Source: Patescibacteria group bacterium (GTDB lineage Bacteria; Patescibacteriota; Patescibacteriia; Buchananbacterales; UBA6539). From it: a stretch of 64,000 nucleotides of DNA. The stretch spans positions 118,467 to 182,466 of the forward strand of contig JBAZSB010000001.1 of assembly GCA_041662625.1 (NCBI GenBank), in the 5' to 3' direction. Below, in pieces: positions 19,136 to 62,395 of the stretch (positions are counted from its first letter, which is position 1; each line of letters opens with the position of its first letter). The notes below the pieces were generated by a model. The model saw only the letters and a list, made by a program, of their open reading frames with translations. It ran no database searches and was not told where the DNA came from. The translations under genes and the position numbers were made by a program.

Positions 19136-20383
19136 ATGCTAGACATTAATAAAATTCGTAACGAAAAAGAAGCAGTCAAAAAAGCGCTTTTGAAAAGAAT
19201 TAGCGAGGCTGATTTTGATTTGGATGCAATTATTAAAATTGATGATTCTAGGCGTCAATTATTGGCTGAGGTTGAAGCTTTGAAAGCTGAAAGGAATAAA
19301 TTTTCCAAGACTAAGCCCAGCCCCGATATTATCGCCAAAATGAAAGCAACTGGTGAAAAGATCAAAGAACTTGATGAACAAGTTAAGGCGACTGAAACCG
19401 AACTGACTGAACGGCTTTCTGCTTTGCCTAATATCCCGGCCGATGATGTTTTGCCTGGTGGTAAAGAAAATAACAAAGTGATCAAAACTTTTGGCAAAAA
19501 GCCCCAGTTTAAATTCGAACCCAAAGATCATTATGATTTGGCCACAAGTCTTGGAATTATTGATTATGAACGGGCGGTTAAAATGTCAGGCAATGGCTTT
19601 TGGATTTACAAGGGGGCCGGAGCAATTTTAGAATGGGCGATTTTAAGCTATTTTATTAAATTCCATCAGGAAAATAATTATACTTTTATGATCCCGCCGT
19701 TTTTGCTGACTGAGCAGTCTGCTTATACTTCTGGACATTTGCCCAAATTCCGTGATGATTTATTCTGGACCCAGGATAAGCAATGCTTGGATGCCACAGC
19801 CGAGATGATGCTAGGGAATTACCATCGCGATGAAATTTTAAACGAAGAGGAACTACCTTTGAAATACGCCGCTTACTCAGCCTGCTTTCGGCGCGAAGCC
19901 GGATCTTACCGCAAAGAAGAGCGGGGGATGATCCGCGGCCACCAGTTTAATAAAATTGAAATGTTCCATTATGCCAAGCCGGCCCAGTCTTGGGATTGTT
20001 TTGCCGAATTAGTGAGCAATGCCGAAAAATTAGTGGAGGGCTTGGGACTTCATTATCAATCAGTCCAGTTGGCAGCTGCTGATGCTTCCGCGGCGATGGC
20101 AAAAACCGTGGATGTTGAAGTCTGGCTGCCCAGTATGAATACTTATAAAGAGGTTAGTAGTGTGTCTAATGCTTTAGACTACCAGGCTAGGCGGGGTAAC
20201 GTTCGATTTAAAAACAAGGCAGGTGGTAAAAACGATTTTGTTCACACTTTGAATGCTTCGGGTTTAGCCACTAGCCGGCTTTTGCCGGCAATTCTGGAGC
20301 AGTTCCAGAATAAAGACGGCAGTGTTGAAGTGCCAAAGGTTTTACAGAAATTCTGTGGTTTTAAGAAAATTGAAAAGAAATAA
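19136..20383 (+). CDS. serS: Seryl-tRNA synthetase
   Basis: Coiled-coil N-arm + class II core; 415 aa. Confidence 0.9.
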   Translation: MLDINKIRNEKEAVKKALLKRISEADFDLDAIIKIDDSRRQLLAEVEALKAERNKFSKTKPSPDIIAKMKATGEKIKELDEQVKATETELTERLSALPNIPADDVLPGGKENNKVIKTFGKKPQFKFEPKDHYDLATSLGIIDYERAVKMSGNGFWIYKGAGAILEWAILSYFIKFHQENNYTFMIPPFLLTEQSAYTSGHLPKFRDDLFWTQDKQCLDATAEMMLGNYHRDEILNEEELPLKYAAYSACFRREAGSYRKEERGMIRGHQFNKIEMFHYAKPAQSWDCFAELVSNAEKLVEGLGLHYQSVQLAAADASAAMAKTVDVEVWLPSMNTYKEVSSVSNALDYQARRGNVRFKNKAGGKNDFVHTLNASGLATSRLLPAILEQFQNKDGSVEVPKVLQKFCGFKKIEKK

Positions 20384-20423
20384 GGCAAAGTAAAAACCAC
20401 CCGCGACTTTGACAATTGTCCTT
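20384..20423. repeat. Conserved 40-bp motif (copy 1): aaggcaaagtaaaaaccacccgcgactttgacaattgtcc; on the - strand it is the 3' flank of the small gene 20499-20705
   Basis: Second copy at 20852-20890 with compensatory change in stem caaagt/actttg vs caaagt/attttg. Confidence 0.55.
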
Positions 20424-20498
20424 TTGTTGCTTTGGACATTGCTTCCAGTCGTCTAGGTGGTTTTGGGGGGCGCGGTGCGGGCCGGGTCGGGATAGAGG

Positions 20499-20705
20499 TC
20501 AGAACCTCTCAATCCCGTCGGTCTGGACTCGGAAGAGTCCGTAACCGAAGGTCCCGATCGTGCCGGCGACCAACAGCAGCATGGCGCCGATGACGGGAAT
20601 CGTTCCCAGAGTGACCTCCGAGATCTTGTTCACCGTTTCGGTGCTGCCGGCGATGCCAGTAATGGTTGAAAGAACCAACGCTGCGAGAAACATGTACTTG
20701 ATCAT
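20499..20705 (-). CDS. Small hydrophobic membrane protein (68 aa) in a GC-rich islet
   Basis: SD aggagagag; TM core; TTGACA-17-TATCAT promoter upstream. Confidence 0.5.
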   Translation of the reverse strand: MIKYMFLAALVLSTITGIAGSTETVNKISEVTLGTIPVIGAMLLLVAGTIGTFGYGLFRVQTDGIERF

Positions 20706-20762
20706 GGTGACTCTCTCCTCTAGTTCTCTAGCATTTGCTAGATCCTCAGTTTGAATAATATA

Positions 20763-20791
20763 ATGATAACATATTTAAAGAAATTTGTCAA
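20763..20791 (-). promoter_or_regulatory. Sigma70-type promoter TTGACA-N17-TATCAT for the small gene at 20705
   Basis: -35 (rc of 20786-91) and -10 (rc of 20763-68); paralogous promoter at 21417-21445. Confidence 0.6.
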
Positions 20792-20851
20792 TAGTAAATT
20801 GATAAAAATAGCTAAATTTAGTCAAATTATAGTTTAAACAAATCGAAAATA

Positions 20852-20890
20852 AGGCAAAGTGAAAACCGCCTGCGATTTTGACAGTATCCC
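20852..20890. repeat. Conserved 40-bp motif (copy 2): aaggcaaagtgaaaaccgcctgcgattttgacagtatcc
   Basis: See 20384-20423. Confidence 0.55.
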
Positions 20891-20975
20891 GAAGGACTCT
20901 ATCAGAATCGAGGCGGTTCCTCGTGTGTTGGGTGGACTCGGACGCCGAGGCTTGGCGACTGGCGTCCTACGTCAG

Positions 20976-21122
20976 TTACTTCTGCTCAGCGTTTTGCCGA
21001 GCTTTTTCGTCGGCCGCTTCCATCAGACTGCCGACTCTGGTAAAGACTCCGCCTATCATGGCAATGATTGTCTCACCAGTCGTGGTTGCAGCCTTTGCCG
21101 GGTTACTACTCTGCTCACTCAT
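20976..21122 (-). CDS. Small protein (48 aa), second gene of a two-gene mini-operon
   Basis: SD ggaagga 6 nt upstream of ATG; 42 nt after the upstream small gene; GC-rich. Confidence 0.35.
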   Translation of the reverse strand: MSEQSSNPAKAATTTGETIIAMIGGVFTRVGSLMEAADEKARQNAEQK

Positions 21123-21164
21123 GGATTTCCTTCCGTTTTCAGGCTCGTGTGCCTGACTGCTTTG

Positions 21165-21350
21165 TCAGCTTCTGACTCGGCTGACCCTTACCACTACGAC
21201 ACATAGCAGCATCGCAGCGCCCCCGTATAGCAGCGCCGCAAAAACTGTCATTGATGTGGGCAGCGCCATACTGCCGGTTATGCCGCCGACAGCGATGCCG
21301 GCCAGCAACAGCACGATGGCGACTGCACCCAAAAAAAGGTTCAATTTCAT
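21165..21350 (-). CDS. Small hydrophobic membrane protein (61 aa), possible paralogue of the 20499-20705 product
   Basis: SD gagggacag; TM helices; TTGACA-17-TATCAT promoter. Confidence 0.5.
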   Translation of the reverse strand: MKLNLFLGAVAIVLLLAGIAVGGITGSMALPTSMTVFAALLYGGAAMLLCVVVVRVSRVRS

Positions 21351-21416
21351 CTGTCCCTCGCTTTCTTTTTCCTTCCGGTTTATATCACTCTTGTTACCAT
21401 TCCGAATTGATATATA

Positions 21417-21445
21417 ATGATACCATTTTTTAGATAAACTGTCAA
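21417..21445 (-). promoter_or_regulatory. Sigma70-type promoter TTGACA-N17-TATCAT (paralogue of 20763-20791)
   Basis: The roughly 70-bp upstream regions of both small genes are clearly homologous. Confidence 0.6.
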
Positions 21446-21488
21446 TGGAAATTTAGGAAAATAGCTAAAATAAGCAATAAATATTATC

Positions 21489-21565
21489 CAAATCTACGAA
21501 TTTATGCCAATCTACAAATTATAGGGATATTCGTAGATTCGGATAGATTTGTAGATTGGTATAAT
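21489..21565 (+). promoter_or_regulatory. Interleaved inverted repeats (aatctacgaat/attcgtagatt and aatctacaaat/atttgtagatt) plus TGGTATAAT box immediately upstream of alr; putative operator/promoter
   Basis: Two nested inverted-repeat pairs within 75 bp; extended -10 ends 3 nt before ATG. Confidence 0.4.
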
Positions 21566-22738: not shown

Positions 22739-22740
22739 AA

Positions 22741-22800
22741 AAATTGGGCTCCCGGTCGGCACAGCAGTTTTTCCTGAACTCTTTGTGAGTTCGACTGTGT
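22741..22800 (-). terminator. Strong Rho-independent terminator for a minus-strand transcript (ggctcccggccgacacacag...ctgtgccgaccgggagcc + TTTTTT)
   Basis: About 19-bp GC stem followed on the - strand by aattttttt. Confidence 0.65.
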
Positions 22801-23435
22801 GTCGGCCGGGAGCCGTCCAATTAGGGCGATGCGCTCGCTCATCAGCGTCTTGCCAGCCTTGGGCTGACAACGCCGAAATACGGGCGTGCCCGAACACGGA
22901 GATGCGGCTTAGCCAGTCGCGGGCGATCCCGGGTTTAGGCCTGGGCGCCGTGCAATCAGCGGGGTTTAGTCCCCGCAGCACTATGTTGGCAAATGCCGCT
23001 CTCCTATCTTAGGAACACTACCTCGTAGTGGGCAAGGACCCGTAGGTCCTCGCGCAGTGTCCCTTGTCCGCGCGCCACCTCGCGCTAAACCCGCTCAGTT
23101 TGCCCGAAGGCCGACGCCGCTGAGATTGATTGCGCGACTGAACGGGTACTACCGATTGGTCAACCAGCCAAGGTCCCCAGCCTTGCGGTCGACCAGAAGA
23201 TCAATGACTTAACCAAGAAAGCCATATTCTCCCTTCCTGTTTGTCGGTTGCGACGCTACGGAGCGTCTGGTTAAAACCCAAAGTAGAAAGTCTTGGTTAC
23301 GAACTTTCTACCCGTGGAATCGGGCTCCATACACCGGCCCAAACGGTGCGGTAGCCCCCATACAACGGGAATTGACGCAACAACATCGTTCGCCCTCCAT
23401 GAGCGCCATAACTTCTGACGCTTGTTGAGGATGTG
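22741..23435 (-). ncRNA. About 700-nt GC-rich (about 58%) hairpin-dense RNA candidate of unknown class, bounded by a promoter and an intrinsic terminator
   Basis: No credible ORF (only terminator-spanning or overlapping ORFs); many hairpins with UUCG/UACG tetraloops (gcc-uucg-ggc, aggacc-uacg-ggucc); promoter at 23438-23466. Confidence 0.4.
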
Positions 23436-32496: not shown

Positions 32497-32650
32497 CTCA
32501 TAGAATTTTGAATTTTTAATTTCGCCTCTCGACTCGCTTCGCTTGCTCGAGGCGACCTGAGCGGAGTCGAATGGTCGAATTTTGATTCAATATTATAATA
32601 TTTGAATATTCAAAATTGATTCAAAATTTAAAATTCAAAATTAAGATTTA
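32497..32650. repeat. Intergenic composite repeat, copy 1: AT-rich palindrome (aatattataatatt) flanked by ttgaat/ttcgaa words plus a GC-rich hairpin module
   Basis: Reverse complement of 39585-39730 (near identical); AT part also at 46070-46180. Confidence 0.75.
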
Positions 32651-33202
32651 TTTCAATGTGTAACTTTCGATTATTCTATACTCCGCACTATTGGGCAAAA
32701 GAGTGCTTTCCATCAGTTCCAGGCTTTTGACCGGAATTAACAAATTCGGCAATTTTATTGGTTCAGTTTTGAACTGGCAAGGGCCAACAATTCGGGCCAA
32801 AGTTAAATGCGGGTGCCAGGCTCGGTGATCAACGTCAATACCAATTTTTTCCAATTCCGCGCCAAGATTTTCTTGGAGGCCGGTTAAACTATCCCCTGCT
32901 TTTTCCTGGCTACTTAAAAAAATAACTCGCGGGTATTTTAAATTGGGAAAAGCGCCAATTGGACCGGTAATCAGTTCAGTTTGCTTGTACTTTTGCGCTA
33001 AATTTTTTAAGACAGTTTTAACTTGATTAATTTGTGCCTCATCTAAATAACCCAAAAAATGTAAAGTCAGATGAATGCCTTTGGTTTTTACGTAGCGAAT
33101 CACCGGCCGGGAATTAATTTTTTGACAAAGTGAAAGTAATTTATTTAATTCCCCTTTGATATTTTCCGGTAGGTTAATCGCTATAAAAACCCGTTTTTTC
33201 AT
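32648..33202 (-). CDS. 2'-5' RNA ligase / 2H phosphoesterase (ThpR/LigT)
   Basis: Two HxTx motifs (HLTLHF, HPHLTLAR); start taken at internal MKKRVFIAINLP because the upstream part of the ORF overlaps the divergent radical-SAM gene. Confidence 0.7.
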   Translation of the reverse strand: MKKRVFIAINLPENIKGELNKLLSLCQKINSRPVIRYVKTKGIHLTLHFLGYLDEAQINQVKTVLKNLAQKYKQTELITGPIGAFPNLKYPRVIFLSSQEKAGDSLTGLQENLGAELEKIGIDVDHRAWHPHLTLARIVGPCQFKTEPIKLPNLLIPVKSLELMESTLLPNSAEYRIIESYTLK

Positions 33203-33240
33203 AATTGAATTATACCATCCAGAAATGTTATAATCAAGAT

Positions 33241-34128
33241 ATGAAAGAAGCTTTATTCTATCAAAAATTAGAAAATAAACAGGTGAAATGCGAACTTTGT
33301 CACCAGTTCTGTCAGATTGCTCCTGGTAAACGGGGTTTATGCGGTGTTCGCGAAAATCAAAATGGTGTTTTGGTAACTTTAGTCTACGGTAAGGTGATTG
33401 CCGCTCACGTTGACCCAATTGAGAAAAAGCCGCTTTATCATTTTTTACCAGGAACTTATTCTTATTCCCTGGCCACGATTGGCTGTAATTTCCGTTGTGC
33501 CCATTGTCAAAACGCCGATATTTCTCAGGCCTCAAAAGAAGGTTTATTTTTTCAGCGGCAAGAAATTCCGGGCGAAGAAATGGCGCCAAAAGACGTGATT
33601 GATCAGGCTAAAAAGTCCCAGTGCCCCAGTATTTCTTATACTTACACTGAGCCGACAATTTTTTTTGAGTTTGCTTTTGATTGCATGAAGTTAGCCCAAG
33701 AAAGCAAGCTAAAAAATGTCTGGGTTTCTAACGGTTATACCAATCTACCGGCTTTAGAAATGGCTAAGCCTTACTTGGATGCAGTCAATATTGATTTGAA
33801 ATTTTTTAACGATTCAACTTACAAAAAAATTTGTGGCGCTAGACTTCAGCCAGTTTTGGACAACCTGGTTTGGTATAAACAAAATGGCGTTCATTTAGAA
33901 GTCACTACTTTGATTATCCCCTCTTTAAATGATAGTGATGAAGAATTAACTGGAATTGCTAAATTTATTAAAGACAAATTGGGAGCTGATACTCCCTGGC
34001 ACGTTACGGCTTTTTGGCCGACTTATAAATTGAATGATTTACCGCCGACTTCGCGGGAAACGATTTTGCAAGCCAAAGAGATTGGAGAAAAGGCGGGGTT
34101 GGAGCATGTCCACGTGGGAAATATTTAA
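33241..34128 (+). CDS. AmmeMemoRadiSam-system-type radical SAM enzyme (PFL-activase-like)
   Basis: CNFRCAHCQN CxxxCxxC cluster, N-terminal CxxC...C; start at MKEALFYQKL (ORF opens at 33205). Confidence 0.7.
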   Translation: MKEALFYQKLENKQVKCELCHQFCQIAPGKRGLCGVRENQNGVLVTLVYGKVIAAHVDPIEKKPLYHFLPGTYSYSLATIGCNFRCAHCQNADISQASKEGLFFQRQEIPGEEMAPKDVIDQAKKSQCPSISYTYTEPTIFFEFAFDCMKLAQESKLKNVWVSNGYTNLPALEMAKPYLDAVNIDLKFFNDSTYKKICGARLQPVLDNLVWYKQNGVHLEVTTLIIPSLNDSDEELTGIAKFIKDKLGADTPWHVTAFWPTYKLNDLPPTSRETILQAKEIGEKAGLEHVHVGNI

Positions 34129-34129
34129 T

Positions 34130-35515
34130 ATGCAAAGAAATAAGAAATTAAGAAATCAAAAAATTAAGAAATTAAAGCTATACTCTGTTTTATTTTCTTA
34201 TTTTCTTATTTTCTTATTTTTTTATCCGAGCGTAGCCTTGGCTGAGTATTATTTTAATCCTCATTTTATTTTGACTGATGAAGAAATGACTGACTCGTTG
34301 GCTCTGACTTTGAACGAGGTCCAAAAGTTTTTAGAAGCAAAAGGCAGCGGTTTGGCTAATTTAGTTTCATCAGATTATAATGGCGTTAATAAAAAAGCTT
34401 CAGAGATTATTTGGCAGGCTGCTATTGAAAGCAAAATTAGCCCTAAAGTTTTGCTGGTGACTTTGCAAAAAGAACAAAGTCTAGTGGAAGAACCATTCCC
34501 AACTCAAACTCAATTAGATCGGGCAATGGGCTATCGTTGTCCTGACAGTGGATCATGCAATCCGAGTACGCTAGATTTTGGCAAACAGGTCGACGGCGCG
34601 GCCTGGCAATTTCGCCAATACTTTGATAATCCATTCAACTGGAATTATCAAAAGGGCCAGACTTATGTAGTTGATGATTATTTAATAACTCCAGTCAATC
34701 AGGCCACGGCTTGCCTTTATAATTATACCCCTCATTACTCTGGCAACCGGCATTTTTGGCAAATTTGGCAGAGCTACTGGGGCCGCGATTACCTCGATGG
34801 TTCACTTTTAAAAGGTTATGACAGTCCGGCTGTCTGGCTTATTCAGTATGGCGGCCGAAGATTGATTACTTCCTGGGGAGTTTTGATTTCCCGCTTTGAT
34901 CCGAAGAAAATAATTACCGTTTCCCAAACCGATTTGGAAAAATATGAAATTGGCCCACCGATTAAATTTTATAACTACTCATTATTGGAAGCGCCGGACG
35001 GTAAAATTTATTTGTTAGTTGATGACCAGTTGCGTCATATTGCCAGTCTGGAAGTTTTTCGGATTATCGGTTTTAATCCCGAAGAAGTAATTGCGGTAGA
35101 GGAAGCCGATTTAGCCGGTTATAAATATGGTCCCGACATTACTACCAGTAGTGTCTACCCGACTGGAGCTTTAATTCAAAATAATAAAACTGGCGGTGTC
35201 TATTATGTTGAAGATGGCATAAAACACCCGATTTATTCTCGTGAAATTCTTGCTGCCAATTTTAAAAGCAAGGTCCTGACTGCCGTTAGCCCCGAAGAAC
35301 TAGATCAATATCAGCTGGGCCTACCGGTTAAATTTAAAGATGGTGAGTTGATTAAAGCCAGTAACGACTCAAAAATTTATGTAATTGCCGATGGCCTTCG
35401 CCATTGGATTAAATCTGAAGAAGCATTTGCCAAGTTTTCCTATAAATGGGATAATGTAATTGTCACGACGCAGCAGGCGGTTGAAATTCATCTTCTTGGT
35501 GAAGATATCGAATGA
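34130..35515 (+). CDS. Secreted protein with four degenerate repeats of a (K/D)GxIY.V.DG.(R/K)H.I.S motif
   Basis: Signal peptide after MQRNKK...; start 1 nt after the radical-SAM stop. Confidence 0.5.
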   Translation: MQRNKKLRNQKIKKLKLYSVLFSYFLIFLFFYPSVALAEYYFNPHFILTDEEMTDSLALTLNEVQKFLEAKGSGLANLVSSDYNGVNKKASEIIWQAAIESKISPKVLLVTLQKEQSLVEEPFPTQTQLDRAMGYRCPDSGSCNPSTLDFGKQVDGAAWQFRQYFDNPFNWNYQKGQTYVVDDYLITPVNQATACLYNYTPHYSGNRHFWQIWQSYWGRDYLDGSLLKGYDSPAVWLIQYGGRRLITSWGVLISRFDPKKIITVSQTDLEKYEIGPPIKFYNYSLLEAPDGKIYLLVDDQLRHIASLEVFRIIGFNPEEVIAVEEADLAGYKYGPDITTSSVYPTGALIQNNKTGGVYYVEDGIKHPIYSREILAANFKSKVLTAVSPEELDQYQLGLPVKFKDGELIKASNDSKIYVIADGLRHWIKSEEAFAKFSYKWDNVIVTTQQAVEIHLLGEDIE

Positions 35516-35537
35516 TGTATAATTTATAATTAATTTT

Positions 35538-36335
35538 ATGCCGTTAGTTTTTTCTGCCATTACTCCTCATCCGCCGGTTTTGATTCCGGAGATTGGCAAG
35601 GACAATTTAAAAAAGTTGGTTAAAACTGAAGAGGCAATGAAAAAGTTGGAGCAAGAATTTTATGCTTCAAAGCCGGAAAGTATTTTAATTATTTCCCCCC
35701 ACGGCGAAATTTTTGACAGTTCCTTTAATATTAATTTAAGCGCTGACTACTCGGCCAACTTTAAAGAATTTGGTGATTTCGGTTTGGAATTAAAATTTAA
35801 AAGTGATTACATGTCAATTCAGGAAATCCGGGCGGCTGACGAAACCCAAAAGGCAGTCGCTGTAGCTTTGACCAGCAATCAGGAGCTGGATCATGGTTGT
35901 TCTATCCCGCTCTATTATTTGACCCAGCATCTTAAAAATATCCCAATTATCCCGGTTACCTATTCTGGTTTAGATTTAAAGCAGCATTTCATTTTTGGTC
36001 AGTTTTTATATCAGCAGTTGGCTAAAATTAATAAACGTTTTGCCGTGATTGCTTCTGGTGATTTATCTCATCGTTTAACTAAAGATGCTCCTGGTGGTTA
36101 TTCTGCCCAAGGTAAAGAATTTGATAAAAAATTAGTTGGTTTAATTAAAAAAAAGGATGTTCAGGGAATTTTGAACATCGATCCAAAGTTAGGCCAGGAA
36201 GCTGGCGAGTGTGGCCTGCGGTCAATTGCAATTCTTCTGGGAATAATCGAATCACTTAATACAAAAACCGACGTGCTATCTTATGAAGGACCTTTTGGCG
36301 TCGGTTACTTAGTTTGCAATTTTCAGTTAGTTTAG
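35538..36335 (+). CDS. Memo-like / class III extradiol dioxygenase B-subunit family protein (AmmeMemoRadiSam protein B-like)
   Basis: MPLVFSAITPHPPVLIPEIG, SPHG, SGDLSHRL motifs; 265 aa. Confidence 0.6.
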   Translation: MPLVFSAITPHPPVLIPEIGKDNLKKLVKTEEAMKKLEQEFYASKPESILIISPHGEIFDSSFNINLSADYSANFKEFGDFGLELKFKSDYMSIQEIRAADETQKAVAVALTSNQELDHGCSIPLYYLTQHLKNIPIIPVTYSGLDLKQHFIFGQFLYQQLAKINKRFAVIASGDLSHRLTKDAPGGYSAQGKEFDKKLVGLIKKKDVQGILNIDPKLGQEAGECGLRSIAILLGIIESLNTKTDVLSYEGPFGVGYLVCNFQLV

Positions 36336-36342: not shown

Positions 36343-36395
36343 ATCAGAAATCAGAGATTATAAAACAGAGACTAAAATTAGTTCTCTGATTTTTT
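36343..36395 (+). terminator. Bidirectional hairpin terminator (aatcagaga...tctctgatt + T6)
   Basis: 9-bp stem, T-run. Confidence 0.5.
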
Positions 36396-36659
36396 ATTGG
36401 CTAGCTTGAAGAAGTATTTCCAGCACTCTCCTGTCTGGCAAAGTTCTTTGGTGTCATTAAGGCATTTTTCCACAAATTGTTTGGGATTTTCCTTGCAGAC
36501 TTTGAAGACAGAATTTCTTTTATAAGACGGAATGTTTAATTCTTCAATTATTTTTAAGGCAAAGTCTTGCCAAGGATAAGCCGGCGGTTTGACGGTCTTT
36601 TTTTGTTTGATAATATCTTGGAAATTCTGGGGGCCAGTATTGATTTTTGAGGTATTCAT
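36378..36659 (-). CDS. Hypothetical Cys-containing small protein (93 aa)
   Basis: ORF only. Confidence 0.35.
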   Translation of the reverse strand: MNTSKINTGPQNFQDIIKQKKTVKPPAYPWQDFALKIIEELNIPSYKRNSVFKVCKENPKQFVEKCLNDTKELCQTGECWKYFFKLANKKSEN

Positions 36660-36724
36660 AGTATTAAAATTATATCAATTTTTTGTTAATAAAAAAAGAG
36701 ATTCGCCAAATTAAGGGCAAATCA

Positions 36725-36892
36725 CTACAAGGAACTTAGGCTATCGCCATAGATACCACTTGGCCGCCGACCAATGATCCAAGCACCGAATTCCCAGAGA
36801 AATACCCCTAGAGCGATGGCGAGAACAGCGATCGTCACGCCGGCAATAAAAAGGAATTCGGACAGAGTTAGTCTGTGATTGGTTGTTGGCAT
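36725..36892 (-). CDS. Small single-TM membrane protein (55 aa), third gene of a mini-protein operon
   Basis: MPTTNHRLTLSEFLFIAGVTIAVLAIALGVFLW...; SD gggaga; start 5 nt after the previous stop. Confidence 0.5.
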   Translation of the reverse strand: MPTTNHRLTLSEFLFIAGVTIAVLAIALGVFLWEFGAWIIGRRPSGIYGDSLSSL

Positions 36893-36896
36893 CTTT

Positions 36897-37124
36897 CTAC
36901 ATCTCCCACTTGGAAGAGCCGTGTGGCGATTGGGGTGGGTACGGGAACTCGTCACGGGCGACGTTTTCCCAGATTGAGCAAACCCGGTCAAAGAGCCACG
37001 ATAACGCCAGCCCCAGAGCCAGTACAATGCCGAAGGCTTGTCGTCTGACTAGAACTAGCAGACTCGCGCCGACGGCAAGTAGAATTATAACAATTGCCGT
37101 CCAGGTGGTAATGTCTCTTACCAT
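36897..37124 (-). CDS. Small two-TM membrane protein (75 aa), second gene of the operon
   Basis: MVRDITTWTAIVIILLAVGASLLVLV...; SD aagggagga; ATG 2 nt after the upstream stop (tga tc atg). Confidence 0.5.
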   Translation of the reverse strand: MVRDITTWTAIVIILLAVGASLLVLVRRQAFGIVLALGLALSWLFDRVCSIWENVARDEFPYPPQSPHGSSKWEM

Positions 37125-37126
37125 GA

Positions 37127-37276
37127 TCAGTCCTCCCTTATGACCAGAATGCCAAGGCCGCCAAAACAGATGGCACCTACATTCAGGCCGGCTACAATGA
37201 CTAGTACGGCTAGGTGTTTGGCTAGCCAAACTATTATTGCTGCTTGCCACAGAGCAATAAAAAGATCTCCTATCAT
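37127..37276 (-). CDS. Small hydrophobic protein (49 aa), first gene of the operon
   Basis: MIGDLFIALWQAAIIVWLAKHLAVLVIVAGL...; SD ggaggg 8 nt upstream. Confidence 0.5.
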   Translation of the reverse strand: MIGDLFIALWQAAIIVWLAKHLAVLVIVAGLNVGAICFGGLGILVIRED

Positions 37277-37344
37277 AATCAAGCCCTCCGTTGTTGTCCA
37301 CTGCAGTGAGCTTAGATAATTTATAGAAAAAAGTCAATTATAGA

Positions 37345-37385
37345 TATAGAAAAACCCGGCGGTCGCAGGGCGACGTCGGGTGTGA
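37345..37385 (-). terminator. Compound GC hairpin + TTTTT terminating the upstream mono-cistronic small gene
   Basis: cccgacgtcgccctgcgaccgccggg + ttttt on the - strand. Confidence 0.5.
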
Positions 37386-37415
37386 ATCTTCCCTCGGTTC
37401 ATCAAGGAGTTTTCC

Positions 37416-37562
37416 TCAAATTCCTTTGGGCGGAGTGTACCAGTGTTTTGGTCTCACAAAACCAATGAGCAGGTCGGACCAAGCCATCGGCGGCCATGTC
37501 AACCAAAGGTTGAACGCGACAATGGCTAACACTCCAACTATTACCGCAATGATCCACCACAT
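37416..37562 (-). CDS. Small hydrophobic protein (48 aa), mono-cistronic
   Basis: MWWIIAVIVGVLAIVAFNLWLTWPP...; SD ggaggg 8 nt upstream; TTGACT-17-TAAGAT promoter near 37700. Confidence 0.5.
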   Translation of the reverse strand: MWWIIAVIVGVLAIVAFNLWLTWPPMAWSDLLIGFVRPKHWYTPPKGI

Positions 37563-37818
37563 ATCTGTACCCTCCAAGGGTTGCCCTTTCTACTGTAGAG
37601 AATTATTCCCAACAAATAGGGTAGTTCTCCCGGAAGGATATCATCATTAGCGAATGCAAAAGCTATCTATTTTTAATCTTAAGCCTATTGGAAGAAAAAG
37701 TCAATTTATCCTCCTACCTTTTAATTATTTTATAAAAGATAACTCCATAGATTGATAAATGATTTCAATTTGATTTTAAAGTATCAAAGGTGGGAGGATT
37801 TATCCCCAAAAAGAGCTT

Positions 37819-37848
37819 GACATAATAATTGATTGCGGTATAATATAT
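37819..37848 (+). promoter_or_regulatory. Near-perfect sigma70 promoter TTGACA-N16/17-TATAAT for the def-fmt transcription unit
   Basis: agcTTGACAtaataattgattgcggTATAAT. Confidence 0.65.
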
Positions 37849-37923
37849 TTTTCAAAACCAAATTTCTCCCAAAAGTTACCGGGAGTTTTTAATTTTCTAA
37901 CAAAAATAACAACAAAAAATAAA

Positions 37924-38061
37924 ATGCCAAAAGACAATCAATCAACCGTTGATCAGCTGAAATTTTTTCTGACTTTGCAGCTGGAAGCTTACCAAAGAAA
38001 CGACCAGCCACTTTATCAGCAGCTGGAAGAAAAAATTTTGGATCTAGAAAAAAAATTATAG
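37924..38061 (+). CDS. Possible 45-aa leader ORF between the promoter and def
   Basis: ATG ORF MPKDNQSTVDQLKFFLTLQLEAYQRNDQPLYQQLEEKILDLEKKL. Confidence 0.25.
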   Translation: MPKDNQSTVDQLKFFLTLQLEAYQRNDQPLYQQLEEKILDLEKKL

Positions 38062-38632: not shown

Positions 38633-39583
38633 ATGAATATGGAAGTTTCAAAGTCAAAAATTGTTTTTCTCGGCACGCCTGAGTTTGCTATGCCAATCTT
38701 GCAGGCTTTAATTGGCAATAATTATAAGCTAGCCTTAGTTATTACTCAGCCGGATAAACCAGCAGGACGTAAACAAGAATTAATTCCCCCACCGATTAAA
38801 GTTTTAGCTCAGAAAAATAATCTGGCAATTGCCCAGCCAAATAATAAAAAAGAATTAGCCGCTATCTTTGAACAGAATAAATTTGATCTGGCAGTATTAG
38901 CGGCCTATGGCATGATTATTCCTGACGAAATTTTGACCAAACCGAAGTTTGGTTTTTTAAATATTCATCCTTCGCTTTTGCCGAAGTATCGTGGCTCTTC
39001 ACCAATTCAATCAGCAATTTTGACCGGCGACAAAAAAACTGGCGTTAGCATCATTCAGCTTGCCAAAAAGATTGATGCCGGTCCGATAGTAGCCCAAGCA
39101 GAGACGGAAATTGAACCTCAAGACAATGTCGAAATACTAAGCCAGAAATTAGCGGAATTGGGTGGGCAGTTGCTAATTGAAACTATACCGGGTTATCTGA
39201 AAGGTGAGGTTAAATTACGGCCGCAAAACGAAACCGAAGCCACTTTTACTAAGATGATTGAACGCGAAGATGGCCTGATAAATTGGCAAAAAACAGCCAG
39301 TCAAATAGAACGGCAATTTCGGGCTTTTTACCCTTGGCCAGGTGTATTTACCCACTTGGCGGGCAAACGCCTTAAAATCGCAAATTTAGGCGTTTTAGAG
39401 GGTGATTTTAAGCCTAATCTAGGTCCAGGGACGGTATTTTTAGGGCCAAATCAAACCTTGGCAGTTAAATGTGGTCAGGGCGCAGTTGAACTTAAGGCGG
39501 TCCAGCTTGAAGGTAAAAAAGAACTGCTCGGCAAAGAATTTTTACGCGGGCAGAAAGAGTTGATTGGAAAGATTTTGGAATAA
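38633..39583 (+). CDS. fmt: Methionyl-tRNA formyltransferase
   Basis: N-terminal formyltransferase core + C-terminal domain; def-fmt synteny. Confidence 0.9.
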   Translation: MNMEVSKSKIVFLGTPEFAMPILQALIGNNYKLALVITQPDKPAGRKQELIPPPIKVLAQKNNLAIAQPNNKKELAAIFEQNKFDLAVLAAYGMIIPDEILTKPKFGFLNIHPSLLPKYRGSSPIQSAILTGDKKTGVSIIQLAKKIDAGPIVAQAETEIEPQDNVEILSQKLAELGGQLLIETIPGYLKGEVKLRPQNETEATFTKMIEREDGLINWQKTASQIERQFRAFYPWPGVFTHLAGKRLKIANLGVLEGDFKPNLGPGTVFLGPNQTLAVKCGQGAVELKAVQLEGKKELLGKEFLRGQKELIGKILE

Positions 39584-39584
39584 A

Positions 39585-39730
39585 TTTGAATTTCGAATTT
39601 TTAATTTTGAATCAATTTTTAATATTCGAATATTATAATATTGAATTGAAATTCGACCATTCGACTCCGCTCAGGTCGCCTCGAGCAAGCGAAGCGAGTC
39701 GAGAGGCGAAATTAAAAATTTAAAATTTTA
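39585..39730. repeat. Intergenic composite repeat, copy 2 (inverted relative to copy 1), between convergent fmt and the phosphatase gene
   Basis: rc matches 32497-32650 including the GC hairpin tcgactcgcttcgcttgctcgaggcgacctgagcggagtcga. Confidence 0.75.
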
Positions 39731-41745: not shown

Positions 41746-41840
41746 GGCTTTATTTTAGCCTAAAATAGTCAGGAAAACAAGGAATGAAAAAACGCCAGCC
41801 GATCCCAAGTGGAATCAGTGGCGTTGACGGTAAGTTTTCT

Positions 41841-42224
41841 TCAGCCAAAGATGGCTTTGAAGGCAGCCGGAATATCTAGCAACCGTAAACCATCTTCTCC
41901 TTTCCGGAATCTTTTTTCCTCATCTTCGGTGATTGGACTTGCCTTCTTTTGTCTTTTGCTTAATCCCGGATCAAGCTTTGGAGTTGCCTCCGCTTCCCGA
42001 GACGAAGGTTGAGTATTGGGTAGTACCGCGTTAGCGATAACACCCATCACTGCTCGAAAAATCTCTCCTCGAGCACTCTCTGCATCTTTCCCCAATTCTC
42101 GAGGATCAACCATGGCACAACCCTTAAAATTCACCAGGGGTTGGCCGCATTGACAATGGGTAATCTCAAGAACATCTCGAGGTTCTTGTCCTTCCGCTCC
42201 ACATCTTGGGCAAGATATCCTCAT
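41841..42224 (-). CDS. Hypothetical zinc-ribbon protein (127 aa) in a GC-rich island
   Basis: CPRCG...CQCG four-Cys ribbon; SD ggtgagg before internal ATG; ORF opens further upstream at 42365. Confidence 0.4.
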   Translation of the reverse strand: MRISCPRCGAEGQEPRDVLEITHCQCGQPLVNFKGCAMVDPRELGKDAESARGEIFRAVMGVIANAVLPNTQPSSREAEATPKLDPGLSKRQKKASPITEDEEKRFRKGEDGLRLLDIPAAFKAIFG

Positions 42225-42457
42225 AGTAACCTCACCTTTCTTGCTTGGTTTGTACCTTTTGTTCCTTTCTGTTTGTACCCCCATTATCGCCTTGTCATAT
42301 TTAGTTAAAAAAGTCAATAATTGACCAATAAAAAATACAGCCCCAACTTCAGCTGTCTTCTCCACCGAGGGCGGAAAAAACTGCCAAAGAAGGGGCTGGG
42401 TAATGCTTACTGCAATGCCGGTTCAAACCGGTGACTCACGCGACGAGCTGTCGTGCG

Positions 42458-42955
42458 TTAAGCCACGGTAAGGACCGGCGCCGGCGCATACCCGATGATC
42501 AGGCTTGATCCCGGTGCCGGACTGGCGACGAGCGAACTCCCAACGAAAGAACTTCCGATATCTGCGTACGCGGCTTCGACGACGGCGAAATGGTACGCAT
42601 CGGGGTGTGTGGCCGGGACTACGACAGCGGCCATGGTTCTCGTGCCGGCGATGTATGACACATCGCCGGTTCTCATCAACTCAACGTCCACGCGGTTCGC
42701 CGTAATATTGGCTGTGCTCTTCGAAAGGGCCGTGCTCGTCCCAATGTCTACATCGGGCCGGGCGGAAATCGTCAACAGGTAATCGCCAGCGGTCGCAGCG
42801 TACGTTTCGGGCGTGACCGTCAACAGGGGGGTAATCGCGGCAGGCTGTACCACGAGGGCTTCGATCGCAGCGTTCGGCGCGGTCTTCGCGGAAGCCGGGG
42901 TGGCCAGGACGAGCATAATCGTAAACGCAATCAACAGCACGGTACATCGTTTCAT
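42458..42955 (-). CDS. Secreted Ala/Thr/Val-rich hypothetical protein (165 aa) in a GC-rich (about 60%) island
   Basis: Signal peptide MKRCTVLLIAFTIMLVLATPASA; SD agagagg; TTGACA -35 upstream. Confidence 0.45.
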   Translation of the reverse strand: MKRCTVLLIAFTIMLVLATPASAKTAPNAAIEALVVQPAAITPLLTVTPETYAATAGDYLLTISARPDVDIGTSTALSKSTANITANRVDVELMRTGDVSYIAGTRTMAAVVVPATHPDAYHFAVVEAAYADIGSSFVGSSLVASPAPGSSLIIGYAPAPVLTVA

Positions 42956-43396
42956 AGGGACCTCTCTTTCTGATTCGCGTTCCATCTAAGGGACGCAGTC
43001 CTTGTCAACTTCGTTCCGTTTTTGACGCTTGGTGCCAATCTGCCGTTGGCGTTTCTCCTCCTTTCGATCTAGCTTCTTTATCCGAAGCGGATTGGGCTTC
43101 AGTAAGAAGCTAGGGTTGCCAATCTTGGATCAGCCTCCTTTCTCCAGGGCCGCGCTGGTAACACAAGCGGCTGTCACGGCATTCTTCGTAGCCATGATTT
43201 GGAGAACCTCCAGGTACTGTAGAAGCGGCGACATTGCCGCCACAGGTTGGTTGTATACTAACCTATTTTTACCAAAAAGTCAATTTTTGGGGAATTTTTA
43301 GCTAAATTTATTTAAAATAAAAAGTCCCAGCGGTTTTGTGGCACTGGGTGATTCTAATTGGTTATTTTTTAAGTGTAGGAATTATGGTTTCCTGAT

Positions 43397-56250: not shown

Positions 56251-56403
56251 AATTTAGATTGAATCCCTGGCTGTGGATATGGGATTATGCCCGATTAAAT
56301 GGCTCATTTAGAAAAAATAAAATTCTTGGCATCATCAGAAATCTTACTTTAGCCTAGAATTTTACCCAAAATAAGACAAATTTTATTTATCTTCACTAAA
56401 ATT

Positions 56404-56433
56404 ATTATAGTGGATTTGGATTTAATTTGTCAA
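56404..56433 (-). promoter_or_regulatory. Consensus sigma70 promoter TTGACA-N17-TATAAT for the infA-rpmJ-rpsM-rpsK-rpsD-rpoA-rplQ operon
   Basis: Perfect hexamers (rc of tgtcaa 56428-33 and attatag 56404-10). Confidence 0.7.
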
Positions 56434-56562
56434 TAATAGAATTATTCTATAGCAAACTCAGAAAAATGTCAACATAAAGGGAAAGGCCACCAGTTCAGCT
56501 TTTCCCTTTGTGGGGCTTACTTTGGTGGCCTTTGTGGGCGCAATGACGATGTTCCTTACCGG

Positions 56563-56865
56563 TTAGGCAAGGACAAGGGCGGGTTGTCCACTCGTCGTCG
56601 TGTCGGCGCCGTAATCGCCGCGGCCAGTGAAGAAAGTGGACATCACATCTTCCATATCCGCCAAGGGGCGGTTACCTTCGAAGACGGTCTTTTGGCCGGT
56701 AAACTTCTCCCAACTCGGGGATTTCTCGGCCTCGGCGAGGTCACTTTCGGTGGCGTGGTGGTGTGTGCACCCCGGCCTGATCCGGAGTATGAGTCCGTTG
56801 CTGTCCTTGGCCAGAAATACTGGCTTTCCATTATGGACATATAGGACTTCGATCTTGTACGGCAT
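56563..56865 (-). CDS. Hypothetical 100-aa protein in a GC-rich islet (paralogue A)
   Basis: SD agagaggag; MPYKIEVLYVHNGKPV...PGCTHHH; about 56% GC. Confidence 0.45.
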   Translation of the reverse strand: MPYKIEVLYVHNGKPVFLAKDSNGLILRIRPGCTHHHATESDLAEAEKSPSWEKFTGQKTVFEGNRPLADMEDVMSTFFTGRGDYGADTTTSGQPALVLA

Positions 56866-57075
56866 TAGTATTCTCCTCTCTTTCTTTGCTTCTGCTTCCG
56901 TTGAGACACACAAACCCAAATTGATAAGTGTATTATAGCAGATTATTATGGGTATGTCAATGGATTTTGAATAAAAATGGCTAAAATTAGATATTTTTGT
57001 TGATTTAAAGTAATAAAAAAACACCAGTCCAAGAGGAAAAACCCTGGACCGGCTTCAAAAGGTCAGAAATAAGAA

Positions 57076-57408
57076 TCAGTCGCTGCTGCAACTACCAGCA
57101 GGAACCGGCGTCGGCTGGTCACTTTGGTGATTGAAGTACACCGTCATGTGGCGGACCATGCAGCGCCGGGCTAAGAAAGTAAAGTCAGGGCTGACAATGC
57201 CCAGGCGCTCGGCGAATGCTTCAGCCGTGGTAAACTCGGGTGTTGTATCCGGGTTAACTGGAAACGCTGGTGAGCCCTCGTCAAAGACCTCAGGCTCGGG
57301 TTCTCCGGCCACAAGAACCATTAGACGGTGCTTTGTGGCCATTCCACCCATACTCTCCTCGACAAGGCAACTTCTTTGACCCGGGTTAACATAAAGAACC
57401 TTTAGCAT
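57076..57408 (-). CDS. Hypothetical 110-aa protein in a GC-rich islet (paralogue B, shares the VLYV(N/H)xG N-terminus)
   Basis: SD ggaggaaaag; TTGACA-17-TAATTT promoter upstream. Confidence 0.45.
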   Translation of the reverse strand: MLKVLYVNPGQRSCLVEESMGGMATKHRLMVLVAGEPEPEVFDEGSPAFPVNPDTTPEFTTAEAFAERLGIVSPDFTFLARRCMVRHMTVYFNHQSDQPTPVPAGSCSSD

Positions 57409-57509
57409 ATCTTTTCCTCCATCCCCGTTGGCTTGGGGAAATCTAGTTTTGCTGTGACTAGCTAGATAAATTATCACGGTAGGTATTTTTTGTCAAAAAT
57501 GAATAAAAC

Positions 57510-57563
57510 AAAAAAGGCACGAGGTCCCGGATTGAGTCTAAGATGACAATTGTGCCTTTTTTG
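57510..57563. terminator. Bidirectional hairpin terminator (aaggcac...gtgcctt flanked by A6/T6) after alaS
   Basis: 7-bp stem, runs on both sides. Confidence 0.5.
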
Positions 57564-57565
57564 GT

Positions 57566-59332: not shown

Positions 59333-59459
59333 ATTTGGATTTTAGCAGATACAGTAGTTATTTTCAAGCTGTTTAATTAAAAAAAGAACCTCGGCAACCA
59401 AAACCTTTTGGTCAGGCTGGAGAGGTGGATAGGAAAGGAATCACTTCGTCCCCCGTAGT

Positions 59460-59897
59460 CTATTTCTTTGTTCGCACGTGGATGACATCGAAGTACTCGG
59501 CGAGCTGATGGAACAGATCACTCGTCAGGTAGTAGACGTACTTGAGTTGGTCTGACTCTTTGAAATTGTTGAAGTCGACCATGGCGACTTTCTTCAAACC
59601 CTCCTGCTCAGAGTCAGGATAAACCACGAGTGTGTAAGTCGCCGAGTTGAAGGACATTTCGGTCAGATCAGCAGTCATCTGCTCGGGCGCAGATTCCCCT
59701 AATCGAATTCGCAGAATTGCTTGGCCAGGACCTTGTTTGACCAAGTCGAAACCCAGATCCCGGGTCTCCTCTGCTTTCTTTGCTGCCTCCTTTGCCTCCT
59801 TGCTCACGTTGGTCAGCGGCTGCTGGCTTTTGGTGCTAGCCAGGCAAAATCCAGCCAGGACAACCAACACCAGCGAAAGAACTGTTGCCTTTCTCAT
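59460..59897 (-). CDS. Secreted hypothetical protein (145 aa) in a GC-rich (about 52%) islet
   Basis: SD aaggaggg before MRKATVLSLVLVVLAGFCLA signal peptide; TTGACA-17-TAAGAT promoter. Confidence 0.5.
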   Translation of the reverse strand: MRKATVLSLVLVVLAGFCLASTKSQQPLTNVSKEAKEAAKKAEETRDLGFDLVKQGPGQAILRIRLGESAPEQMTADLTEMSFNSATYTLVVYPDSEQEGLKKVAMVDFNNFKESDQLKYVYYLTSDLFHQLAEYFDVIHVRTKK

Positions 59898-59994
59898 TTG
59901 AGGACCCTCCTTGTGTGACACGGCAGTTGTCTATCTATTCTTTGGCATCTTATGATTTATTAATTTGGATGTCAATATTGTATAAATTATTAAG

Positions 59995-61663: not shown

Positions 61664-61800
61664 TTCTCCTCCAAAGCCACTATTTTCTAATAATGAACTT
61701 GGAGGAGAGGAGCTGGTATACACGCTATCGCATGTTACGTCAGCTCCCCAATACTTTCGGACTCGTTTCGCTCGCTTCAGCCAATCGGCTGATTAGCGGG
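61664..61800. repeat. About 130-bp structured direct repeat, copy 1, immediately 3' of the stop codon of the minus-strand gene 61806-62036
   Basis: About 95% identical to 62270-62395; hairpins ctcctccaa...ttggaggag and ggagctg...cagctcc; 5-nt indel between copies destroys the apparent ORF. Confidence 0.8.
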
Positions 61801-61805
61801 AGGAA

Positions 61806-62036
61806 TCACTGGGCAACGGCCAGCGCATTGCGTTTTTCTATGCGCGCCAGCCTCTTGAAATACGCCCAAACCTCATCGCGGAGGTCCTGAAACTCACTGT
61901 TGCGCACGACCCCAATGAGGTCGCGTAACATGGGAGTCCACGTAATCGAATTCCAGGACTTCATGTTACTTTGCAGGTATTCACACCCGCAGTTCTCGTC
62001 ACAATCGTGACATGGGGTAGAACACTGAAATGCCAT
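61806..62036 (-). CDS. Small Cys-rich protein (76 aa; CSTPCHDCDENCGC at the N-terminus), possible metal-binding module
   Basis: SD agaggag; GC about 52%. Confidence 0.45.
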   Translation of the reverse strand: MAFQCSTPCHDCDENCGCEYLQSNMKSWNSITWTPMLRDLIGVVRNSEFQDLRDEVWAYFKRLARIEKRNALAVAQ

Positions 62037-62269: not shown

Positions 62270-62395
62270 TCTCCTCCAAACCCACTATTTTCTAATAATG
62301 AACTTGGAGGAGAGGAGCTGGTATACACGCTATCGCATGTTACGTCAGCTCCCCAATACTTTCGGACTCGTTCCGCTCAGCCAATCGGCTGAGGA
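62270..62395. repeat. About 130-bp structured direct repeat, copy 2, starting right after the stop codon of gene 62414-62983
   Basis: See copy 1. Confidence 0.8.

Follow-up and report, generated by a model that had tools for sequence, protein, structure and literature searches.

Introduction

Small membrane proteins of bacteria are micro-proteins of under ~75 amino acids (aa), AcrZ, MgtS, KdpF and CydX being examples, and small hydrophobic peptides are also encoded by type I toxin-antitoxin (TA) systems such as hok/sok, tisB/istR, fst and aapA/isoA. In the Patescibacteria, or Candidate Phyla Radiation (CPR), which have tiny genomes and live attached to hosts, much of the biology is thought to depend on uncharacterised proteins of the membrane and surface. 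Here we describe a 1.1-kb islet with four small open reading frames (ORF1 to ORF4) on the minus strand of a 64-kb stretch of contig JBAZSB010000001.1, referred to below as the window, which belongs to a patescibacterial metagenome-assembled genome whose nearest named peptide deformylases are those of Candidatus Buchananbacteria. Comparison with related genomes makes it very probable that this segment is a hypervariable accessory islet composed of two units of small membrane-protein genes.

The islet ORFs resemble known small membrane proteins in their length (48-75 aa), their one or two transmembrane (TM) helices, their Shine-Dalgarno (SD)-led starts and in being of a kind often overlooked by annotation, as well as in combining fast-evolving TM segments with conserved short polar tails. 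They differ from those described in that they show no sequence relationship to them, have no partner transporter or sensor alongside, and occur as a cluster of four in a replaceable islet. With the genomic islands of Patescibacteria (PMC12455944) the islet shares conserved flanks, non-homologous content, deviating composition and mostly hypothetical genes; unlike them, it measures only 1.1 kb, lacks an integrase, a tRNA and mobile hallmarks, is GC-richer rather than AT-richer than the core, and contains exclusively micro-protein genes behind a positionally conserved promoter. As in integron cassette arrays, short units of the same orientation appear to be swappable at one site, but there is no integrase nearby, the units end in promoter boxes and intrinsic terminators, whereas integron cassettes end in attC sites, and the ORFs of the second unit are coupled. 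In the literature on CPR small proteins, variable regions, Buchananbacteria and type I TA in CPR, we found no description of this locus or of its protein families.

Results and discussion

A replaceable islet of distinct composition

The borders of the islet were revealed by a related locus (L004, from Ga0265297_10002632), whose peptide deformylase (Def) is 90% identical at the aa level and whose flanks are 74-85% identical at the nucleotide (nt) level: blastn homology between this locus and the window stops at 36702 and restarts at 37800 (Table 1). In between, L004 has 1.5 kb of its own with small ORFs of 71, 64, 79 and 78 aa, all but one of the four being hydrophobic, which have no significant DNA or protein similarity to the ORFs of the window. 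The closest relative that we found, L162 (JBGGHJ010009884.1, of assembly GCA_041643015.1; flanks 89% identical in nt sequence), is collinear with the window through the first promoter (P1), leader, ORF1, terminator and second promoter (P2), after which P2 leads straight into an ortholog of ORF3; ORF2 and ORF4 are missing from it as clean indels of ~155 nt and ~150 nt, respectively. Another relative, L017 (Def 64-68% aa identity), has only the ORF1 cassette in common with the window, and in L148, L014, L011/L012 and L009/L015 only ORF3-family genes are in common. The locus is hypervariable, with conserved syntenic flanks and a content that is either non-homologous or subject to presence and absence in close relatives. 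These comparisons indicate that the content of the islet turns over through gene-sized gain and loss, partial tandem duplication and non-homologous replacement between close relatives.

The islet also stands out by its composition. The initial annotation had put its GC content at 55-58% in a 35% genome, and the measured contrast is smaller: 49.7% over 36725-37577 (47-54% per ORF), as compared with 40.1% for the whole window, with an abrupt shift at the borders and AT-rich promoter and spacer parts (25-42% GC). The distinction itself holds, and it marks a replaceable segment in an evolutionary regime of its own. At third codon positions (GC3) the four ORFs reach 0.53, compared with 0.37 in 28 core genes, and since core membrane proteins reach only 0.38-0.47, amino-acid composition is no explanation for the excess. 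In 6-7 of 8 relatives, too, the ORFs of hotspot islets exceed the adjacent core genes in GC3, even where the ORFs are unrelated, the exception being the AT-rich L106.

An abrupt change in composition is also what a chimeric assembly would produce. The islet DNA is, though, 99.97-100% identical in three independent assemblies from three samples (ERZ27249449 from the European Nucleotide Archive, and SRR18595301 and SRR6484324 from Logan), and L162 and L017 have homologous cassettes at this very position. Identical junctions in three independent assemblies rule out a chimera, which the initial annotation had named as a possible refutation and to which we assign practically no probability.

A hotspot between p93 and the def operon

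To the left of the islet lies the conserved gene p93, and to its right p45, which heads the def-fmt operon and is conserved in the clade carrying islets. By alignment with p93 we fetched 149 loci from metagenomes and species-representative genomes. The gene order LigB/Memo - p93 - Def - Fmt proved to be widespread (~150 loci), occurring in Buchananbacteria, Falkowbacteria, Komeilibacteria and other Patescibacteria; p93 adjoins LigB/Memo and Def in ~150 loci (L013-L161) and lies between them in most. Where Def and p93 are divergent (n = 107 loci), the gap between them has a median length of 95 bp and is shorter than 200 bp in 74 of the 107. In the p45-bearing subclade it spans 0.4-1.8 kb, exceeding 0.8 kb in all loci but one, and most of these loci have small SD-led hydrophobic ORFs on the p93 strand between p45 and p93, which differ from genome to genome. 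In the Buchananbacteria-like clade, 0.6-1.7 kb of the gap is taken up by lineage-specific small membrane ORFs. The site is thus a hotspot that has repeatedly gathered micro-protein genes.

The islets of this clade have a promoter element in common. The 11-mer AATTGACTTTT occurs in exactly three copies in the window, all on the minus strand and all heading islet units (37696-37706, 37329-37339 and 43275-43285). In the related loci, TTGACTTTT stands on the islet strand at the front of the islets in L013, L014, L017 (twice), L040/L042 (twice) and L148, is followed by a -10-like TAAAAT, TAAGAT or TAGAAT, and is 14-fold enriched in islets over the rest of the loci. As the box heads islets with differing ORFs, the promoter is conserved in position while the ORFs behind it change.

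Four SD-led hydrophobic ORFs in two units

The four minus-strand ORFs of the initial annotation (48, 49, 75 and 55 aa) are present, and each has the SD, ATG and one or two hydrophobic helices ascribed to it. GGAGG, GGGAG or GAGGG lies at most 18 nt upstream of the ATG in all four, the 19-residue Kyte-Doolittle maximum (KD19) is 2.3-2.8 in 4/4, and simple segment mapping places one TM segment in ORF1, two in ORF2, two in ORF3 and one long segment in ORF4. With no more than ~100 aa, at least one predicted TM helix and a plausible start, all four have the form of small membrane proteins. When an SD-led hydrophobic ORF was defined as one of 25-140 aa with an SD 5-mer and a KD19 of at least 2.0, seven distinct examples were found on both strands of the 64-kb window, four of which are the islet ORFs. 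Among 3000 dinucleotide-preserving shuffles of the islet, 2992 contained no such ORF and eight contained one, as against the four observed.

The ORFs are arranged in two units. The view of ORF1 as monocistronic, with a TTGACT-17-TAAGAT promoter and its own hairpin/T5 terminator, is borne out by a promoter scan and by the retention of the terminator in three other genomes. For the second unit the promoter and the coupling stand, and the spacings need correction: stop and start are 2 nt apart between ORF2 and ORF3 and 4 nt apart, not 5, between ORF3 and ORF4, gaps that point to translational coupling of ORF2-ORF3-ORF4. The -10 of P2 is too weak for the promoter scan; P2 is nevertheless identical in L162 (46/46 aligned bases), and its -35 box is kept in L017 and L016. 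At the end of this unit, alignments with L162 and L004 show conservation of the terminator T-run and the downstream p93 promoter, but not of the hairpin. The ORFs had been described as absent from the automatic ORF track, yet public assemblies of the same DNA call those of 55, 75 and 49 aa, with the 49- and 55-aa products named 'hypothetical protein'.

Table 1. Features of the islet and its borders (positions in the window).
Feature	Position	Strand	Description
p93 (left border)	36378-36659	-	Conserved 93-aa gene; relatives at the same position in ~150 Patescibacteria loci
Islet	36703-37799	-	Shares no DNA similarity with the corresponding site of relative L004; both flanks conserved
ORF2-4 terminator	36690-36723	-	Hairpin and T-run; terminator scan
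ORF4	36725-36892	-	55 aa; SD region/start GGGAGATGTAGAAAG-ATG
ORF3	36897-37124	-	75 aa; SD region/start GGGAGGACTGATC-ATG
ORF2	37127-37276	-	49 aa; SD region/start GGAGGGCTTGATT-ATG
Promoter P2	37309-37337	-	-35 box AATTGACTTTTT, 17-nt spacer, TAAGCT (TTGACT-17-TAAGCT); read from the sequence
ORF1-unit terminator	37350-37382	-	GC hairpin CCCGACGTCGCCCTGCGACCGCCGGG, then T5; folds as a hairpin
ORF1	37416-37562	-	48 aa; SD region/start GGAGGGTACAGAT-ATG
ORF1 leader	37563-37668	-	~105 nt; contains the conserved block TTGGGAATAATTCTCTACAGTAGAAAGGG
Promoter P1	37676-37704	-	-35 box AAATTGACTTTTT, 17-nt spacer, TAAGAT (TTGACT-17-TAAGAT); promoter scan
Right border	37817-38061	+	TTGACA-16-TATAAT promoter 37817-37844 (12/12, promoter scan); 45-aa p45 37924-38061

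Searches of Pfam, PHROGs, PADLOC and NCBIfam with the four peptides and a homolog gave nothing significant; all PHROGs and Pfam matches had E > 0.1, apart from one sub-threshold CapC match for ORF3 (E = 0.0086), and blastn of the islet against phage and plasmid collections found no match. The genes around the islet have housekeeping functions (LigB/Memo, radical SAM, Def, Fmt and glycosyltransferases), and the called genes within ±10 kb include no integrase, transposase, endolysin, tRNA, ABC transporter, peptidase or modification gene. Little is left of the toxin-, holin- or bacteriocin-like character first proposed, and only ORF1 is type-I-toxin-like, in its anatomy. For a holin or lysis cassette we found no adjacent endolysin or spanin, no phage DNA match and no holin-family homology; for a bacteriocin or immunity locus, no transporter, peptidase or modification genes within ±10 kb and no Pfam or NCBIfam matches.

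It could also be argued that some or all of the ORFs, mainly ORF2 and ORF4, are untranslated, and that the islet is a GC-rich structured or regulatory RNA or a fast-evolving spacer with chance ORFs. ORF2 and ORF4 are without homologs and absent from the closest relative, and overlapping ORFs abound on either strand of the stop-poor islet DNA. The folding of the ORF2-4 transcript is somewhat stronger than that of shuffles (z = -2.2), and strong folding (z about -5) is also predicted for a GC-rich islet elsewhere in the window (22740-23420) that lacks a notable SD-led ORF. We nevertheless consider this reading very improbable: the protein motifs of ORF1 and ORF3 persist past detectable DNA similarity, with a ratio of nonsynonymous to synonymous divergence (dN/dS) below 1 and changes in excess at third positions, no shuffle yielded four SD-led hydrophobic ORFs, and coupling at 2 and 4 nt is typical of operons. 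The islet DNA is moreover not conserved in L004 and so is not a conserved RNA. A search of the whole window against Rfam at gathering thresholds gave 0 matches, no family emerged for the islet, where a search at E <= 5 returned chance microRNA and sRNA matches only, and a tRNA/tmRNA scan of the 64-kb window found none.

ORF3 and its neighbours in the second unit

On comparative grounds ORF3, which anchors the islet, is a genuine gene under weak purifying selection; it belongs to a tiny clade-restricted family, here named 'DEFP' after its motif. The protein consists of a helical hairpin (two TM helices) followed by W-L-x-D-R-V-C-S-I-W-E-N-V-x-x-D-E-F-P and a C-terminal W-E-M. Members of the family have one or two TM helices, the motif W-[LI]-x-D-[RK]-[VI]-C-x-[IVA]-[WF]-x-[ND]-[VI]-x-x-[DE]-E-[FY]-P, a Pro-rich stretch and a C-terminal [WFYM]-E-[MLD]; they are found in L162 (P0139, 73 aa, 60% aa identity), L148, L014, L011/L012 and L009/L015, to which P0138 can be added, and every member that can be placed sits at the p93/def locus. 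An AlphaFold 2 model of ORF3 (mean predicted local distance difference test score 69) has helices at residues 3-28 and 31-59; the motif falls in an extension of a helix, and the tail is predicted to be disordered.

Between ORF3 and its L162 ortholog, synonymous divergence (dS) is 0.64 and nonsynonymous divergence (dN) 0.26 (dN/dS 0.41), with an excess of third-position changes; the core genes have a dN/dS of 0.05-0.08 in the same comparison. The C-terminal half can still be aligned with that of L148 (52% aa identity, dN/dS 0.14), where the proportion of synonymous differences (pS) is saturated at 0.74 and DNA similarity is undetectable. A word-indexed homology search with ORF3 alone returned only itself, and the family became visible through synteny-guided comparison and a profile; in a search of 1.84 billion representative proteins the profile identified only five convincing members, namely the four of the query and P0139. 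Two repeat proteins of 294-312 aa from the same search (P0140 and P0141) were rejected as spurious-looking low-complexity matches. The family alignment was too variable for a scan of viral contigs. In L014 the ORF3-family gene (3531-3914) has an in-frame TGA (3735-3737) between the part with the first TM helix and loop and the part with the second TM helix and the DEFP motif, which could reflect a pseudogene, read-through or a sequencing error.

The initial annotation had made conservation in related CPR genomes a touchstone for these proteins, and the outcome is in its favour, ORF1 and ORF3 being conserved as proteins; ORF2 and ORF4 have no homolog in the fetched loci. ORF2 probably arose when the 5' part of ORF3, SD included, was duplicated in tandem, because the sequence before it (GGACAACAACGGAGGGCTTGATTATG) resembles that before the ORF3 ortholog of L162 (GGCAACATGGAGGGTTCAATTATG), and because the ORF2 protein can be aligned to the hairpin at the N-terminus of ORF3 with a score of 49, which was reached by only 2 of 1000 composition-preserving shuffles. 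A 73-aa ORF of L148 was considered as a relative of ORF4 and rejected, as its score was reached by 215 of 5000 shuffles in a post-hoc C-terminal comparison and by 656 of 5000 over the full length. ORF2 and ORF4 appear to be lineage-specific and, judged by these comparisons, are either very young genes or not genes.

ORF1 and the conservation of its entire transcript

Comparison of orthologs likewise indicates that ORF1 is a genuine protein-coding gene under weak purifying selection, representing a second tiny clade-restricted family. Its N-terminal TM helix (residues 1-23) is followed by a polar, charged tail, PPMAWSDLLIGFVRPKHWYTPPKGI, which is nearly invariant, the changes being concentrated in the TM half. 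Orthologs are present in L162 (88% aa identity) and L017 (71%), with a fragment at the start of contig L016, and the dN/dS is 0.39 and 0.46 relative to L162 and L017, respectively. The 71-aa ORF of L004 has a similar LTW...PKG pattern, but a hidden Markov model E value of 0.5, and was not accepted as a relative. In viral contigs the ORF1 family has no relatives. Arrest peptides of the RAPP type carry RAPP or RGPP near the C-terminus and are encoded upstream of the gene that they regulate (PMC12992588); these motifs are absent from the tails of ORF1 (YTPPKGI) and ORF3 (FPYPPQSP), and ORF1 is followed by a terminator.

Conservation of ORF1 is not confined to the protein. The -35 box and -10 of P1 are kept in L017 and L162, the leader is 75-82% identical to those of these two relatives (75% to L017), the 3' untranslated region and terminator are 80% identical to L017, and the terminator is almost invariant in L162, L017 and L016. 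The block conserved with L017 (window 37708-37329, 80% nt identity) has the -35 boxes of P1 and P2 at its ends, and is thus bounded by two direct copies of AATTGACTTTT. Within ORF1, the pS relative to L017 is 0.33, whereas for p93, p45 and def it is 0.70-0.83 (saturated); relative to L162, the dS of ORF1 is 0.17 and that of core genes 0.5-0.8. In the leader, CCUUCCGGG is predicted to pair with the SD GGAGG, and consensus folds of two and three sequences retain all SD-sequestering pairs, with one-sided C/U changes there. This conservation may be due to recent lateral exchange or to RNA-level constraint on the entire transcript.

Such features raise the question of whether ORF1 is the toxin of a type-I-like TA or addiction cassette, in which a structured mRNA with an occluded SD would be paired with an unseen antisense or trans RNA, and which would move laterally as a selfish element. 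The likeness to type I TA, which concerns ORF1 only, lies in a small hydrophobic peptide (48 aa, a single TM helix and a polar charged tail), its monocistronic unit with its own promoter, the long leader of ~105 nt predicted to occlude the SD, the strong terminator, and conservation of the whole transcript beyond neutrality. The predicted leader helix is kept in three genomes, and direct repeats of the AATTGACTTTT box flank the block. There are, however, no antisense promoter scoring at least 9/12 and no plus-strand terminator within 37340-37720 (a weak or atypical promoter could escape the scan), no similarity to Pfam or NCBIfam toxin families and no Rfam match. The fold of the ORF1 transcript has a modest z-score of -1.7, and its covariation comes from three sequences, with 3 double-sided changes in 98 pairs. 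ORF1 keeps the same syntenic position in all carriers, which is atypical for a freely mobile addiction module, and the other three ORFs form a coupled operon. A dN/dS of 0.4 with a perfectly conserved C-terminal tail would also fit an ordinary membrane micro-protein. All in all we regard the type I reading as unlikely.

Origin and role of the islet

A bolder version extends this idea to all of the GC3-rich islets, which would be promoter-to-terminator micro-cassettes under the AATTGACTTTT box that are duplicated, disappear and pass laterally between related CPR genomes through recombination there, in an integrase-free, integron-like manner, with the ORF1 cassette as a selfish, RNA-constrained, type-I-toxin-like member. 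We regard this scenario as distinctly unlikely. The box itself is only 11-12 nt long, and no direct repeats of at least 14 nt were found inside the islet.

A recent foreign origin of the islet, from a higher-GC donor, a mobile element or a phage (for instance as a holin-like, superinfection-exclusion or bacteriocin-immunity cassette), would account for the GC3 excess over the core, seen also in most relatives, and for the unrelated genes that relatives carry there; Patescibacteria are also documented to have genomic islands and to transfer genes within the phylum (PMC12455944). Yet nothing was found in phage or plasmid collections, PHROGs or PADLOC, ORF1 has no relative in viral contigs, and there is no integrase, transposase, endolysin, transporter or tRNA within ±10 kb. 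The promoters, SDs and terminators have a native style, the box keeps its position throughout the clade while only the ORFs change, the ORF3 family is confined to the clade and to one locus, and the differences in ORF2 and ORF4 from L162 look like local duplication and indels rather than insertion of a foreign block. We therefore hold such an origin to be quite improbable. As causes of the GC3 excess, foreign origin may be considered alongside GC-biased gene conversion at a recombination hotspot and a bias of young ORFs toward stop-poor sequence.

The explanation that we favour, and consider probable as a whole, is a fast-turnover accessory islet of new clade-restricted membrane micro-proteins. 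It occupies the divergent-promoter gap between p93 and the p45-def-fmt operon of a Buchananbacteria-like patescibacterial genome, and would comprise two self-contained minus-strand transcription units, each under a sigma-70 -35 box of the AATTGACTTTT type. In the first, P1 would drive a transcript with the ~105-nt leader, ORF1 and the hairpin-T5 terminator, in which pairing of the leader with the SD may gate translation; in the second, P2 would be followed by translationally coupled ORF2, ORF3 and ORF4 and then a terminator. The predicted products are integral-membrane micro-proteins crossing the membrane once or twice, with ORF2 and ORF4 as putative young, lineage-specific but translated genes, and they may confer strain-specific membrane or surface traits or modulate larger membrane proteins. 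That the proteins act as accessory components of the envelope or membrane, and are probably not toxins, holins or bacteriocins, is a tentative functional reading that we hold with somewhat less than even confidence.

Several points weigh against this explanation. The description of the products as accessory envelope micro-proteins is a tentative reading, and expression and translation of all four ORFs are deduced from sequence signals. ORF1 was missed by the gene callers of the public assemblies, and the nucleotide conservation of its cassette exceeds what a simple protein-coding model predicts. The status of ORF2 and ORF4 rests on SD, ATG, coupling and hydrophobicity, and ORFs of 49-55 codons are not rare at ~50% GC; the 'SD' of ORF4 coincides with the conserved last codons of ORF3 (TGG GAG ATG), and no homolog of ORF2 or ORF4 was found among 17,643 ORF segments of related loci. 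Finally, the elevated GC3 of the islet ORFs is not accounted for.

The locus shows that even a genome of ~0.9 Mb keeps a defined hotspot where, over species-level distances, new micro-protein genes arise and others are duplicated, exchanged or lost. The locus yields two new clade-restricted micro-protein families with clear motifs (ORF1 and the 'DEFP' family of ORF3) and, in ORF2 arising out of ORF3, an apparent example of gene birth. Only the ORF1 cassette, with its nucleotide-level conservation and predicted SD-pairing leader, is out of the ordinary; should it truly be toxin-like or mobile, it would offer a tractable entry to RNA-level regulation and selfish elements in CPR, and a selfish type-I-toxin-like cassette of this kind would to our knowledge be the first in Patescibacteria. 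For the present, the value of the locus lies mainly in better annotation and a documented evolutionary pattern, and no new mechanism is revealed.

Neighbouring genes and other islets of the window

The p93 protein at the left border contains Cys and is marked by the motifs PPAYPWQDFALKII, KRNSVFKxCKEN and CQTGExWKYFFKL; this widespread conserved gene has no match in Pfam, NCBIfam or PHROG, and no relatives of its family were found in viral contigs. Upstream of the islet, the window at 33205-36335 brings together a radical SAM protein, a ~469-aa protein without a Pfam match and a LigB/Memo-like protein, a trio reminiscent of the AmmeMemoRadiSam gene triad.

The initial annotation had seen the same theme recur along the window, and this holds for 20.4-21.5 kb. 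At 20380-21560 there are two tandem minus-strand promoter-to-terminator cassettes with ORFs of 61, 48 and 68 aa (two of them with two TM helices; GC3 0.55-0.77). Duplication extends to the promoter (50 nt, 72% identity), the terminator (35 nt, 89%) and part of the TM-coding sequence (26 nt, 85%), so that the region looks like a cassette duplication caught in progress. At 56.5-57.4 and 59.5 kb the likeness extends to GC3 and not to the membrane character of the products, one signal peptide excepted: the regions 56400-57700, 59390-59950 and 61670-63100 contain minus-strand small ORFs of 76-189 aa (GC3 0.57-0.68) that are mostly non-membrane, with one signal peptide and one N-terminal TM helix among them. 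All three could be additional accessory islets that share this composition.

A second islet, with 56-60% GC, lies at 41767-43393 and is replaced by unrelated GC-rich DNA in L004. The third, identical copy of the AATTGACTTTT box heads this islet, in which a long leader precedes the gene for a 165-aa protein with a signal peptide (42458-42955, GC3 0.70); within the leader, a putative SD-led mini-ORF of 21 codons (43130-43195) was read by eye. None of the other islet proteins of the window (at 20.5, 42.5, 56.6, 57.1, 59.5 and 62.4 kb) has a homolog in the fetched loci.

Between two plus-strand genes, some 680 nt of 60-63% GC (22740-23420) are without an SD-led ORF of note. This segment opens with a long near-perfect hairpin (22746-22815), and the remainder folds with z = -4.95 on the minus and -3.86 on the plus strand (20 shuffles each). 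No Rfam family matched it at E <= 1, and its predicted folding makes the segment a candidate large structured RNA of no established class.

Lastly, an AT-rich intergenic element of ~153 nt, with a GC-rich hairpin at its core (TTCGACTCCGCTCAGGTCGCCTCGAG...), is present in two inverted copies, 93% identical to each other, at 32504-32656 and 39575-39730, which flank a ~7-kb segment that holds the islet. L004 and L009 lack the element in the fmt/His_Phos gap, an observation that points to a small mobile repeat resembling a miniature inverted-repeat transposable element (MITE).

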